Positions 31,141 through 45,609 of a stretch of 47,149 nt of DNA are shown here, one piece after another (the stretch's first letter is position 1; each line of letters starts with the position of its first letter). The position numbers and the translations under genes were made by a program. The stretch comes from a phage, in the sequence record PZ445406.1, one strand, 5' to 3'. The notes below the pieces were generated by a model. It did not search any database. It saw only the letters and a program-made list of their open reading frames with translations, and was not told where the DNA came from.

Positions 31141-31392
31141 ATGTTGGGTTTAGATTTTCAGCCAGAGCATTATGATTTAGTGTATGGGCAAAGTGGATCG
31201 AAGTTTAGAGCGATACCTATTGCTGACTGGTTCCCTCCTGACTATGTTGATGTGAACGCAAAAACTAAAGAAGGAAAGTGGGTACAGATTTACTACTCCC
31301 CAGCATGCGGAAACCTTTGCATGACTGACCTTGATCAGAAATTAGCAATTAGTGCGGAAGTGATAGACTACTGGTTGAAAGAAGTTGAATGA
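31141..31392 (+). CDS. hypothetical protein
   Basis: AAGGA SD. Confidence 0.45.
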   Translation: MLGLDFQPEHYDLVYGQSGSKFRAIPIADWFPPDYVDVNAKTKEGKWVQIYYSPACGNLCMTDLDQKLAISAEVIDYWLKEVE

Positions 31393-42991: not shown

Positions 42992-43215
42992 GAACATTGA
43001 GACAGATTTTACACGGTTGTAAGAAGCATCATTATGTTTACTTTCGTGATATTAAGTGGTTCGAGGATGCTCACTTTTTAGATGGCTACAAGACAAAGTT
43101 AGTATGCAAGAAATGCATGCACGTGGAGAACAGCATGGTGGATATGATGATTTGCCGCAGCACACTAGACTACATTGCGTATGGAAAGCTCAAACATCCA
43201 CCAGTTAAACCGTAA
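42988..43215 (+). CDS. hypothetical Cys/His-rich protein
   Basis: ATG 42988 (track start 42964 is upstream alternative); CKKHH and CKKC motifs. Confidence 0.4.
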   Translation: MRTLRQILHGCKKHHYVYFRDIKWFEDAHFLDGYKTKLVCKKCMHVENSMVDMMICRSTLDYIAYGKLKHPPVKP

Positions 43216-43229
43216 TTTTTAGAAAGAGC

Positions 43230-43258
43230 TTGCATCACTGACTGGAACCATCTAAAAT
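43230..43258 (+). promoter_or_regulatory. sigma70-like promoter upstream of tRNA leader
   Basis: TTGCAT, 17-bp spacer, TAAAAT. Confidence 0.45.
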
Positions 43259-43485
43259 TAACCACGTAGACAAACGAGGCCACCAATTGGCAACGGCGCA
43301 CGGAGCGCGCTACAAGGTAAGTCCGTTGCTCATTAAGTAGCGTATGCGGCACATAAGGCCAGTGAGGATAAGGCGAAAACCTCGATAAGTCGGCCCCAAG
43401 TCGAATAGTACGAGTCGATGTAAGGTTGCAGAATACAACCGGTCGTTTCAGCCGACCCCGGAGCCGTAACCGGGACTCATTCAAA

Positions 43486-43563
43486 GCTCTGCTAGCTCAA
43501 CAGGACAGCAGCAACGACCTTCTAAGTCGTAGGTTACTGGTTCGAATCCAGTGCGGAGCGCCA
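43486..43563 (+). tRNA. tRNA-Arg (anticodon UCU)
   Basis: Hand-folded cloverleaf: 7-bp acceptor with one GU, anticodon arm ACGAC/CTTCTAA/GTCGT with U33 and A37, T-arm with GGTTCGAATCC, encoded CCA. Confidence 0.7.
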
Positions 43564-43594
43564 GATTTAACCAATAACTCTAGGGAGTTTAATT

Positions 43595-43816
43595 ATGAAA
43601 ACTGTAACAATCATCGTAAAAGATTCAGAAACCGGAACCATTCAGAAGTTTAACGCAAAACTCGACTTTGAGCATCAGTGCTTAAAGGGCGTAATCGGTG
43701 GCGTATCAGTAAATGCAAATATTTACGGCTGGCTAATGAATTCAAATAACAAAGATGAAGTCTCTTTGGCTGGTAAAAAATTCGAATTTAAAGAAGCGGC
43801 CAATGACGACGAGTAG
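43595..43816 (+). CDS. hypothetical protein
   Basis: GGGAG SD; first ORF after tRNA. Confidence 0.45.
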   Translation: MKTVTIIVKDSETGTIQKFNAKLDFEHQCLKGVIGGVSVNANIYGWLMNSNNKDEVSLAGKKFEFKEAANDDE

Positions 43817-44000
43817 ACTGTGGAACGTCAAACTTTCAATCAGATTGATGGGCCGCTCGTGCAAAAATTGCACTCAAGATTATATCGCGTCAGTTGCCGC
43901 AACCAGCGCTGAGGATGCGGTAGCGAAAGTAAAAGAGATGTCGGGTGCTGACCCTGACACTCACAAATTCCTGGTAGCTTACGTTCGTGAGCGAAAGTAA
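43803..44000 (+). CDS. hypothetical protein (start uncertain)
   Basis: In frame with track ORF 43755; ends before terminator 44044-44067. Confidence 0.3.
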   Translation: MTTSRLWNVKLSIRLMGRSCKNCTQDYIASVAATSAEDAVAKVKEMSGADPDTHKFLVAYVRERK

Positions 44001-44043: not shown

Positions 44044-44067
44044 AGCCCTCGCTTGAGGGCTTTTTTT
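44044..44067 (+). terminator. intrinsic terminator
   Basis: AGCCCTC-gctt-GAGGGCT hairpin plus T7. Confidence 0.65.
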
Positions 44068-44077
44068 CGTCTGTATG

Positions 44078-44392: not shown

Positions 44393-44415
44393 AGCCCCTT
44401 AATTGGGGCTTTTTT
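44393..44415 (+). terminator. intrinsic terminator
   Basis: AGCCCC-ttaatt-GGGGCT hairpin plus T6. Confidence 0.65.
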
Positions 44416-44436
44416 ACGTCTGCAGTATGGTATAAT
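44408..44436 (+). promoter_or_regulatory. extended -10 promoter for membrane peptide gene
   Basis: TGgTATAAT directly after terminator; weak -35. Confidence 0.4.
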
Positions 44437-45132: not shown

Positions 45133-45609
45133 ATGGATTGGGGTGATTTTTTCTATTTAAGCAGCGAATCTCCTAGTGGTCTAAAATGGAAAGTTGACAA
45201 AGGGAGGGTAAGGGCTGGCGATAACGCTATAACGGCAATTGGTAATGGCTATTACAAGGGCAGGTTAAACCAGGTGACTGTTTATGCCCACAGGGTAGTT
45301 TATTTTCTTGCGTACGGAGTAAAGCCAGAGGTAATAGATCACATTGATGGTGATGGCCTTAATAACTCAATAGACAATCTTCGAGACGGAACAACAAGGC
45401 AGAATATGCAAAACAGAGCGTGTAAGGGCTACAGCTACAACAAAAGGGATGACGTTTATTACGCGCAGATAACAAAGAATGGGGTGACTAGACATATTGG
45501 GTCTTTCTCCACAAAGGAATCAGCCATAGCTGCATACCTAAGAGAGAAGTCTTTAGTTCATGAGTTTTATAATGAGGAAAGAGATATATGCTCATCTGGG
45601 AAGAAATGA
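45133..45609 (+). CDS. HNH homing endonuclease (HNH plus AP2-like domain)
   Basis: HIDGDGLNNSIDNLR HNH motif and AP2-like C-terminus; stop overlaps terL ATG. Confidence 0.75.
   Translation: MDWGDFFYLSSESPSGLKWKVDKGRVRAGDNAITAIGNGYYKGRLNQVTVYAHRVVYFLAYGVKPEVIDHIDGDGLNNSIDNLRDGTTRQNMQNRACKGYSYNKRDDVYYAQITKNGVTRHIGSFSTKESAIAAYLREKSLVHEFYNEERDICSSGKK

Follow-up and report, generated by a model that had tools for sequence, protein, structure and literature searches.

The DNA analysed here (the window, 47,149 nt in full) is that of Escherichia phage JeanPiccard (Bas02; Drexlerviridae, Braunvirinae). A leader of 221 nt (approximately 43265-43485, plus strand) is located some 1 kb upstream of terS, between a promoter and a gene for tRNA-Arg(UCU), which is entered in the record as bas02_0078; the leader itself is unannotated. 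The small-gene unit headed by this leader element lies just upstream of the terminase operon and comprises the following features:

43230-43258, plus strand: sigma70-type promoter with -35 TTGCAT (43230-43235), 17-nt spacer and -10 TAAAAT (43253-43258), from sequence and conservation
43265-43278, plus strand: predicted transcript start (43265/43266) and conserved 5' single strand CGUAGACAAACGAG(G), from conservation
43279-43291, plus strand: hairpin H1, GCCAC-CAA-UUGGC, whose closing pair 43283:43287 is a C-U mismatch in JeanPiccard, from covariation
43292-43295, plus strand: linker AACG, part of the family-wide (G)CAACG, from conservation
43296-43308, plus strand: hairpin H2, GCGC-ACGGA-GCGC, invariant within Braunvirinae
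43321-43350, plus strand: hairpin H3 with internal loop, Braunvirinae only, containing the boxA-like GCUCAUUAA (43328-43336), from the RNAalifold consensus
43364-43383, plus strand: hairpin H4, GAGG-AUAAGGCGAAAA-CCUC, optional and found in some Braunvirinae only, from alignments
43384-43440, plus strand: JeanPiccard-specific middle segment, including the hairpin GGUUG-CAGAAUA-CAACC (43424-43440), from alignments
43441-43457, plus strand: hairpin H9, GGUCG-UUUCAGC-CGACC, with compensatory changes UA to CG and CG to UA
43457-43474, plus strand: hairpin H10, CCCGG-AGCCGUAA-CCGGG, the element's final hairpin, whose loop carries the family-wide CCGUAA motif, from covariation
43475-43485, plus strand: spacer ACUCAUUCAAA, the homologue of the stretch before the RBS (..CAUUCAGGAG) in tRNA-less relatives
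43486-43563, plus strand: tRNA-Arg(UCU) with encoded CCA (43561-43563), from ARAGORN (anticodon tct), Rfam and the record
43595-43816, plus strand: first ORF of the leader/tRNA unit, 73 aa, phrog_16862, with an N-terminus resembling the 53-aa phrog_6666
43818-44000, plus strand: 60-aa CxxC protein, phrog_2919, the constant companion of the leader across Drexlerviridae
44044-44068, plus strand: intrinsic terminator ending the unit of leader, tRNA and small genes, from a terminator scan

In T1-like phages the slot of the first ORF is filled by the 53-aa phrog_6666 protein, and the companion gene phrog_2919 is present in 790 phage records. A PDB profile search with the 60-aa CxxC protein gave at best HMA (MxCxxC) domains at a non-significant E of 0.23, and profile and family searches with the small proteins adjoining the leader assigned none of them a function and recognised no N-like or Q-like family and no RNA-binding partner. 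The leader/tRNA unit is self-contained: it closes with its own terminator, and terS has a conserved extended -10 promoter of its own.

The promoter can be read directly from the DNA, as an earlier sequence-only reading had done (TTGCAT-N17-TAAAAT), and comparison with relatives bore it out. Its JeanPiccard form is kept in 16 of 17 Braunvirinae relatives, and phage ES carries TTGACA-N17-TACATT instead, with CGTAGAC at an equal distance; this conservation together with the replacement in ES speaks in favour of a genuine promoter, from which transcription would begin near 43265/43266. In other subfamilies the promoter takes the form TTGACx-N17/18-TAnnnT, mostly with an extended -10, and always lies 6 nt before CGT, and it is from this constant distance of 6 nt to the -10 that the start is predicted. 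A simple consensus scan did not list the JeanPiccard promoter because its -35 fits at only three of six positions. The promoter spacer holds the family-wide motif CTGACTGG (43238-43245), and a CTGAYYGG motif was conserved inside the spacer in the family comparison. Behind the promoter, no other part of the element is as well conserved across Drexlerviridae as the 5' single strand. A candidate second copy of the promoter and element at 31317 (one mismatch) was rejected, as it lies inside a coding region with no leader behind it.

The tRNA gene downstream of the promoter, also proposed earlier, was confirmed by the ARAGORN call and by the match of 43486-43563 to the Rfam tRNA family RF00005 (55.5 bits vs a gathering score of 29). 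AGA and AGG are the rarest arginine codons in E. coli, and the long ORFs of the window use them at about 11 and 8-9 per 1000 codons, respectively. This usage lends plausibility to the suggested AGA supplement: the tRNA may assist translation at the AGA, and possibly AGG, codons that the phage uses heavily.

As had been noticed, the leader is GC-richer than its flanks (49-55% vs 36-45%). It is non-coding: the longest closed ORFs, of 11-49 aa, change strand and frame from one relative to the next, and no conserved ORF was found among the relatives compared, in agreement with the earlier remark that none was convincing. The three hairpins previously named as strong are present, the first of them in the conserved form GCGC-ACGGA-GCGC at 43296-43308, but in terms of energy their strength was no better than chance. 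The whole leader folds at -61.6 kcal/mol vs a shuffle mean of -61.4 (z = -0.04, plus strand; z = -1.21 for the minus strand). Its folding energy equals that of the shuffles, a result that speaks neither for nor against structure; the evidence for structure in the leader comes only from covariation. At the gathering threshold, Rfam 15 revealed in the window the tRNA alone, and lenient scans of the leader (E<=10) and of nine relatives' loci (E<=1) added chance-level matches only. Nothing similar to the leader was found in E. coli genomes, so that it was not copied from the host, and the literature on small RNAs or transcriptomes of T1 and Drexlerviridae yielded no description of it. The leader is a structured non-coding RNA element that was previously undescribed.

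Comparative analysis revealed the leader to be conserved and unannotated in 94 phage records. The element stands at the head of the pre-terminase small-gene unit in all Drexlerviridae subfamilies that were compared, T1 and TLS included, and 80 IMG/VR loci carry it, T1 and TLS among them. From the CGUAGACAnAnGAGG start it runs through H1, CAACG, H2 and a variable set of hairpins to a final hairpin that bears the CCGUAA loop. Its 5' core was made into a covariance model (R1), which matched once in each of 97 of 98 sources, always on the plus strand and at the same place, and the 98th locus carries the element just below the R1 threshold. In the window R1 has a single match in 47 kb (43265-43315, 51.6 bits, E 3.6e-14). 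JeanPiccard shows the proposed family pattern, namely promoter, 6 nt, CGURRAC-N-GAG(G), H1, (C)AACG, H2 and phrog_2919 downstream, with the terminal CCGUAA-loop hairpin (43457-43474) before the tRNA. In Webervirus all that is kept is the 5' strand, H1 and a single additional hairpin; thus H2 and H10 are not universal. In the genomes of the family the leader region is at present blank or mis-annotated.

The 16-nt pattern AACGGCGCNCGNAGCG hit at least 120 IMG/VR loci, with one real element among the matches listed; with a longer pattern that contained gaps, 8 loci were obtained, nearly all of them known isolates. The metagenome scan contained five real loci among the matches listed, all Braunvirinae-like. 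For genome contigs with CGTAGACANANGAGGC, the 120 matches listed represent the seed alone and are due to chance, with no bearing on bacterial genomes.

In the covariance-model alignment A5, H2 was paired in 78.8%, a figure that is too low because the Braunvirinae H2 is misaligned there; pairs were therefore recounted in a plain MAFFT alignment of 30 non-Braunvirinae sequences, with Braunvirinae left out. In this alignment (n = 30), 97.8% of cells were paired vs 67.8% in shuffles. The covariation score of 0.823 vs 0.265 when shuffled was reached by none of 500 shuffles, and slid controls did not exceed 0.139. Changes on both sides occurred in eight of nine pairs, and G-U pairs were present, which fit the plus strand only, with no A-C counterparts in the clean alignment. 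For H1, all four pairs showed both-side changes, with 98.2% of cells paired in alignment A5 and 95.8% in alignment A8. In other subfamilies H2 was 99.3% paired, with both-side changes in four of five pairs and a semi-conserved loop GCGAUA.

Compensatory changes support H1, H2, H3, H9 and H10. In H3, pair 62:84 changes from GC to AU and pair 63:83 appears as UG, CG or UA; the stem of H10 covaries within Braunvirinae, and across the family six different stems carry one CCGUAA loop. The middle region (43384-43440) is variable in length and content, and the JeanPiccard segment takes the place of other hairpins that relatives carry. Some relatives, from several lineages including Webervirus, have a long stem in H10 or the last hairpin and then a U-tract. 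H10 of JeanPiccard is followed by ACUCAUUCAAA and the tRNA and has no U-tract, which excludes attenuation as the mechanism in this phage. A loop theme CG(U/A)(A/U)A can be recognised as a reading of the alignments without statistics, and its clean copy in JeanPiccard is that of H10 only.

The ancestral layout places H10 about 10 nt before the RBS of the first small ORF. As judged from sequence, it is exactly between H10 and this RBS that the tRNA gene is inserted in Braunvirinae and a few others. Depending on the lineage, this slot holds an Arg-UCU, Arg-CCU or Ser-GCU tRNA, and in non-Braunvirinae it is without a tRNA, save for one Nouzillyvirus contig and one other contig. The homologous element precedes protein genes, without a tRNA, in T1, TLS, Webervirus, Tlsvirus, Sertoctavirus, Kyungwonvirus and most Nouzillyvirus, and further tRNA-less carriers are TH27, P818, GS166, Sushi, Shfl1, ESP2949-1 and SRT8, with others among the 80 IMG/VR loci. 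Because most T1-like phages examined have no tRNA at this place, the tRNA represents a later insertion into the RNA element.

Taken as a whole, the 221 nt are, with moderate confidence, the Braunvirinae version of a leader RNA common to T1-like phages, which would have a protein-binding regulatory role and received the tRNA as a later insert. Host RNA polymerase would start near 43265, and the transcript would open with the conserved single strand (C)GUAGACAnAnGAGG, span the leader, tRNA-Arg and the two small ORFs, and stop at the terminator at 44044-44068. RNase P is expected to cut after 43485 (43485/43486), which would define the 3' end of a free, presumably stable leader RNA of about 220 nt (221 nt by the predicted ends) and separate it from tRNA and mRNA. 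Of the processed sRNA suggested earlier, the conserved, structured plus-strand RNA thus stands, and its release by RNase P is a prediction. In the proposed mechanism the single strands and the CG(U/A)(A/U)A-type loops would serve as recognition sites for a protein, and the stems would need only to pair. The leader would set the level of transcription or translation into the downstream small genes, and in some lineages H10 may function as an intrinsic-terminator-like attenuator. Since the leader is conserved after the tRNA split it from the ORFs, it would have to act co-transcriptionally or as a free RNA. The conservation right at +1 could partly reflect promoter or operator constraint at the DNA level.

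Such a leader resembles bacterial 5' UTR leaders and attenuators and 5' UTR-derived sRNAs in its covarying stems, its conserved loops and junctions, and an expression platform that differs by lineage, with a terminator-like or a plain hairpin near the RBS. It differs from them in that no alternative antiterminator pairing was found, and in having no ligand or protein assigned and no Rfam family match. The chain of small hairpins, which can be added, deleted or doubled and in which one loop motif recurs, is reminiscent of CsrB/RsmZ; however, the leader motif is CG(U/A)(A/U)A-like and not GGA, and is present in 1-4 copies. A CsrA (GGA) sponge was dropped by eye, as leaders of T1-like phages have no GGA loops. 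CRISPR-repeat mimics and ToxI-like repeats were likewise dropped by eye because the stems and loops are unlike those repeats, and mimicry of the tRNA-Thr anticodon loop by CGUAA loops is no more than speculation, as the loop sizes do not fit.

Several other explanations were weighed against the protein-binding leader RNA. It is possible, though doubtful, that the element functions as a free trans-acting sRNA, whose 5' end (GUAGACAnAnGAGG) would be a seed for mRNAs or whose loops would be a decoy or sponge for a protein, released by RNase P in Braunvirinae or by a terminator in Webervirus and others. The position of the most conserved segment as a 5'-terminal single strand suits this role, and a discrete 3' end could be formed in most lineages by a hairpin with U-tract or by the tRNA. 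The leader is also conserved, and even gains hairpins, once parted from the ORFs by the tRNA, and the H9-H10 unit is duplicated in JulesPiccard. However, sites complementary to the conserved 5' strand occur in the phage genome at chance level (6 vs 3.4 expected), the genes downstream of the element are the same in every case, and T1-like phages, Tlsvirus and Nouzillyvirus have neither terminator nor tRNA between leader and ORF. The 3' terminator with U-tract typical of Hfq-dependent sRNAs is absent from JeanPiccard; U-tracts are present in Webervirus and several lineages. Processive antitermination or an anti-Rho function in the manner of put, nut or rrn boxA is unlikely; it would guard the untranslated leader and the tRNA from Rho, or allow read-through into the terminase operon. 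The promoter-proximal position is that of putL and nutL, conserved single strands lie beside short hairpins with conserved loops, strong terminators stand between the leader unit and terS, and a co-transcriptional role would survive the insertion of a tRNA. Yet behind every terminator stands a conserved extended -10 promoter, which makes read-through unnecessary. Put RNA acts by binding to the beta' zinc-binding domain of RNA polymerase, whereby terminators further downstream are suppressed. The put RNA of HK022 is a promoter-proximal, cis-acting antiterminator of about 70 nt that comprises two long stem-loops and an RNA triplex (PMC9378689). The leader shares with it the promoter-proximal position, the candidate protein-independent hairpin RNA and the setting of an E. 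coli phage on host RNA polymerase, and a put-like role would tolerate a tRNA insertion; its helices, in contrast to the two long put stems, are of 4-5 bp and variable in number, with conserved single strands between them, and the downstream operons have their own promoters. With lambda nut and rrn it has in common a single-stranded box beside a 5-bp hairpin with conserved loop, an early-type promoter and small genes after it. The boxA-like GCUCAUUAA would also favour antitermination, but the one match to the boxA consensus (GCUCUUUAA-like), GCTCATTAA at 43328-43336, is weak, with one mismatch, lies partly inside H3, is confined to Braunvirinae and would be expected at such a position with a chance of about 0.05, and no boxA was found in the family-wide universal core. 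A boxB-type hairpin with a conserved GNRA-like pentaloop is likewise not apparent, as the H1 loop varies both in sequence and in length and the H2 loop is GCGAUA or ACGGA, and no N-like or Q-like protein was recognised among the neighbours.

Ownership of the leader by the tRNA was close to the original proposal and is now improbable, whether the leader is taken as a long precursor segment needed to express or mature the tRNA or as the decayed remnant of a second tRNA or RNA gene from an earlier tRNA cluster. Leader and tRNA do adjoin on the same strand in one unit behind the conserved sigma70 promoter, as had been stated. Small stable RNAs, species 1 and 2 (rnaC/rnaD), are co-transcribed with the tRNA cluster of T4, and these too are non-coding structured RNAs on a phage tRNA transcript, freed by tRNA processing. 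By description, however, the JeanPiccard-type element is set apart from them: it mostly occurs without a tRNA, adjoins a promoter, has the same small genes downstream and shows no tRNA-like fold. The homologous leaders before protein genes in most Drexlerviridae contradict ownership by the tRNA, and three different tRNAs share the slot. A second, degenerate gene of the tRNA kind found no support either, since the tRNA model gave no second match in 43100-43700 at E<=10 and just a single gene was called by ARAGORN. Still less probable is an element acting as DNA, such as an operator, a replication origin or a pac site with an incidental transcript. Conservation that begins exactly at +1, the CTGAYYGG motif in the promoter spacer and the proximity to terS (~1 kb) would fit such an element, but the stems vary and yet pair while the loops stay constant, which is the signature of an RNA and not of a protein-binding DNA site. 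The G-U pairs on the plus strand, with no A-C counterparts, likewise oppose it, and neither repeats nor AT-rich features of an origin are seen in the region. Hardly any weight can be given to a small protein or peptide encoded in the leader, be it a 16-17 aa ORF that begins 7 nt after GAGG or a 104-aa minus-strand ORF (43170-43484). The GAGG is Shine-Dalgarno-like with TTG or GTG at a suitable distance in JeanPiccard and type A relatives, and the 104-aa frame is among the listed ORFs; however, start codon and frame are lost in the type B and C hairpin variants and in other subfamilies, indels are not multiples of three, and the longest ORFs vary among relatives not only in strand and frame but also in length (11-49 aa).

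Beyond the protein-binding leader RNA favoured above, a bolder reading can be offered, more tentatively than even the trans-acting sRNA. The element may represent a new class of regulatory RNA in all T1-like phages that works on host machinery, either by modifying the polymerase (anti-pausing or anti-Rho) or by serving as a decoy to a host protein, of RNA-binding or defence type, that reads the 5' strand and the CGUAA-type loops. In this reading the site would be a preferred landing pad for tRNAs because it is strongly transcribed and untranslated.

T1-like phages are classical and very common coliphages as well as notorious laboratory and fermentation contaminants. They depend on the host polymerase only and have few recognisable promoters (PMC11447400). 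For gene regulation in these phages, an RNA with structure and no Rfam match that in every one of them directly follows one of the few canonical promoters offers a concrete, testable handle. The single tRNA of Rtp-like phages appears as a passenger in an existing non-coding unit, with the slot used independently by different tRNAs, a pattern that bears on how phages acquire and express tRNAs. The leader element also supplies a family-wide covariance model for annotating Drexlerviridae genomes.

The window is Escherichia phage JeanPiccard (Bas02, MZ501080.1; Drexlerviridae, Braunvirinae) in rotated form, with coordinates 2592 lower than those of that record. Its tRNA-Arg(UCU) belongs to a self-contained unit of promoter, leader, tRNA, a 73-aa ORF, a 60-aa CxxC ORF and a terminator (44044-44068), and our comparative analysis revealed a family-wide element, structured at the RNA level, at the 5' end of this unit. 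The promoter described by the sequence-only reading (TTGCAT-N17-TAAAAT, 43230-43258) was recognized in the sequence as claimed and is conserved in alignments of Braunvirinae relatives; a simple consensus scan did not list it because its -35 agrees at only 3 of 6 positions. In phage ES it is replaced by TTGACA-N17-TACATT with the distance to CGTAGAC exactly unchanged, which argues for a real promoter and points to a predicted transcription start at about 43265/43266. The promoter spacer also carries a CTGAYYGG motif (43238-43245), conserved family-wide at a varying distance from the -10 and 12-19 nt from CGTAGAC, which could be a candidate regulator site; together with the leader it has no second occurrence elsewhere in the window.

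The leader is GC-richer than its surroundings, as had been noticed (49-55% GC versus 36-45% in the flanks). Of the strong local hairpins proposed, the three named ones are present, but the leader as a whole is no more stably folded than its dinucleotide shuffles (z = -0.04), so that structure must be shown by comparison and not by energy. Alignments of 17 and then 23 distinct Braunvirinae relatives resolved the leader into a chain of local hairpins, some of them present or absent as whole units:

43279-43291, + strand, hairpin H1
43296-43308, + strand, hairpin H2
43321-43350, + strand, hairpin H3
43364-43383, + strand, hairpin H4, optional
between H4 and H9, + strand, variable middle region
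43441-43457, + strand, hairpin H9
43457-43474, + strand, hairpin H10, the last of the leader

Among Braunvirinae H1 occurs as GCCAC/GUGGC, CCAUC/GAUGG and CUAGC/GCUAG, pairs of H3, H9 and H10 have changed on both sides, and H2 is invariant. In JulesPiccard (locus L017, ~1180-1285) the H9-H10 hairpin pair is tandemly duplicated, the second loop having diverged (AAUCAUAA). The leader does not code for protein, in agreement with the earlier impression that it holds no convincing ORF: none is kept among relatives, the longest closed ORFs (11-49 aa) differ in strand and frame, and indels among Braunvirinae are not multiples of three. From the end of the upstream CDS at 43215 up to the tRNA, the JeanPiccard record is unannotated, as are almost all of the 94 phage records with the leader over this stretch.

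The Nouzillyvirus TH27 gave a similarity match only to the promoter and the first leader bases. Its locus contains the promoter, an identical start and H1, more hairpins and a last hairpin CCGG-ACUCCGUAA-CCGG; directly after it, without an intervening tRNA, comes the RBS of a 65-aa CxxC protein. This protein is a homologue of the one encoded at 43818-44000 (phrog_2919), which occurs in 790 phage records spanning the whole Drexlerviridae. With the CxxC protein as anchor, loci were obtained from Nouzillyvirus, Tlsvirus, Webervirus, Tunavirus, Kyungwonvirus and Sertoctavirus, and a further sample comprised 80 IMG/VR loci, T1 and TLS among them. All these loci share a series of features in the intergenic gap upstream of the small genes:

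1-2, canonical promoter, then 6 nt
3, CGURRAC-A-n-A-n-GAG(G)
4, H1, its stem sequence lineage-specific
5, (C)AACG
6, H2 with a GCGAUA-like loop, in all but Webervirus
7, last hairpin with a CCGUAA loop about 10 nt 5' of the RBS, in most

Since a related element thus precedes protein genes without a tRNA in TH27 and most of these other loci, the idea of a second, degenerate RNA gene or a leader tied to the tRNA is not supported. The Cronobacter phage ESP2949-1 (locus L277, 655-844) has an unusually long gap behind the leader, with sub-threshold Rfam matches to permuted tmRNA (24.9 bits) and beta-tmRNA (19.2 bits); ARAGORN finds nothing in this gap.

A 49-position covariance model (R1) built on the 5' core matched 97 of 98 sources once each, and every match lay on the + strand and in the same place; in the remaining source the element is present just below threshold. 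Its sole match in the 47-kb window is 43265-43315 (51.6 bits, E 3.6e-14). In a plain MAFFT alignment of 30 distinct non-Braunvirinae sequences, not fitted to structure, 97.8% of cells formed a standard pair against 67.8% in shuffles, and 8 of 9 pairs had changed on both sides. The covariation score was 0.823 against 0.265 in the control, with none of 500 shuffles reaching the observed value, and at most 0.139 when partners were slid by 1-3 columns. G-U pairs were seen in this alignment and their A-C counterpart was absent, which fits an RNA of the + strand and not a DNA palindrome. The alignment fitted to the model, which mis-aligns the Braunvirinae H2, gave the same picture for H1 (98.2% paired). 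The loop of H10 stays the same on at least six different stems.

The tRNA itself proved as good as claimed: ARAGORN calls tRNA-Arg(UCU) at 43486-43563 with CCA encoded, and the Rfam tRNA model gives it 55.5 bits (gathering score 29). At non-Braunvirinae loci ARAGORN finds no tRNA except in one Nouzillyvirus contig and one contig with tRNA-Ser(GCU), the latter occupying the same slot as Arg-UCU, between the last leader hairpin and the RBS; two Braunvirinae have Arg-CCU there instead. The ARAGORN calls in the slot are:

L286 (Nouzillyvirus contig) 802-879, tRNA-Arg(UCU)
L287 (contig) 894-981, tRNA-Ser(GCU)
L004 1733-1808 and L015 967-1042 (Braunvirinae loci), tRNA-Arg(CCU)

The slot behind the leader has been used repeatedly for tRNA insertion and looks like a hot spot. 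In tRNA-less relatives, the counterpart of the spacer ACUCAUUCAAA that lies 5' of the JeanPiccard tRNA is by alignment the ..CAUUCAGGAG pre-RBS spacer; therefore, the tRNA was inserted at the old RBS. The leader is independent of the tRNA. The suggestion of an AGA supplement agrees with codon usage in the window's long ORFs, where AGA (~11 per 1000 codons) and AGG (~8-9) together make up ~40% of arginine codons; in E. coli each accounts for a few per 1000. Such usage is uncommon among coliphages and consistent with the retention of AGA- and AGG-reading tRNAs, and the JeanPiccard tRNA-Arg is most simply a codon supplement. ARAGORN also found tRNA-Arg(UCU), unannotated in the records, in Rtp (locus L002, 1794-1870) and DTL (locus L008, 1014-1091), contrary to its stated absence from both phages (PMC8421802).

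Downstream, the small units that follow, and terS as well, are each served by a separate promoter placed immediately after a terminator, and every subfamily keeps the module of terminator plus GCCTGCAATATGGTATAAT in front of terS; late genes thus do not require read-through from the leader promoter. In this module (44393-44434) a conserved extended -10 promoter (..GCCTGCAATATGGTATAAT..) comes immediately after a strong intrinsic terminator, with homologous sites in every subfamily (loci L007, L273, L274, L276, L278, L291 and L318). T1-like copies continue ATAGCAC..TTG.TAAA, the 21-nt repeat described for TLS, a phage with few reported promoters (PMC11447400). The phrog_2919 protein, named "putative RNA polymerase inhibitor" in one record, resembles heavy-metal-associated MxCxxC domains only non-significantly (E 0.23); its JeanPiccard copy starts with CTG (ATG in relatives), with an in-frame ATG at 43755. 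Directly after terS lies a 158-aa ORF (45133-45609), at the position that corresponds to an HNH endonuclease annotation in the Rtp record.

The leader matched no Rfam 15 family, whether in the window or at the loci of nine relatives, and nothing similar was found in E. coli genomes. Phage T4 co-transcribes its species 1 and 2 RNAs with tRNAs, a feature shared by the leader, which is not tRNA-dependent. The genome paper mentions only the tRNA (PMC8421802), and the openly readable literature searched contained nothing on this leader RNA. We class it among phage non-coding or 5'-leader RNAs, with good support for the structure.

As to function, transcription would start at about 43265 and an RNase P cut at 43485/43486 would release a free leader RNA of ~221 nt. 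The closest alternative to the reading we favour is that this RNA acts in trans, as a small RNA or sponge. Next comes a polymerase-modifying role. The leader has its promoter-proximal position in common with HK022 put RNA, but not the architecture, and shares the box-plus-hairpin logic of nut and rrn leaders, but not their consensus. A boxA-like GCUCAUUAA/GCTCATTAA (43328-43336), which differs at a single position from the boxA core GCTCTTTAA, falls in the H3 loop and stem, and UGCUCAUUAAGUA agrees with the rrn boxA at 10 of 13 positions; the site is restricted to Braunvirinae, a match of this kind has a chance of ~0.05 in the leader, and GCUCAUUAA is too weak to support a put/nut-like role.

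The reading we prefer is a regulatory leader that would bind a protein and persist as a free RNA. Sequence varies freely in its stems and is fixed in the 5' strand, in CAACG and in the loops (GCGAUA, CCGUAA and, in relatives' H4, GGCGUAAAC), a pattern that would suit recognition by a protein or other macromolecule. In the short Webervirus leader the second hairpin precedes UUUUAUU and is called terminator-like, and other lineages form a group in which U4-U8 comes after a CCGUAA hairpin with a long GC stem; T1-like phages, Tlsvirus, Nouzillyvirus and Braunvirinae lack the U-tract. The terminator-like form that the last hairpin takes in some lineages and its position next to the RBS suggest that the leader may control expression of the downstream small genes. 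That Braunvirinae have kept, even expanded, the leader though the tRNA separates it from the ORFs argues that it would act during transcription or as a free RNA rather than by masking the RBS.
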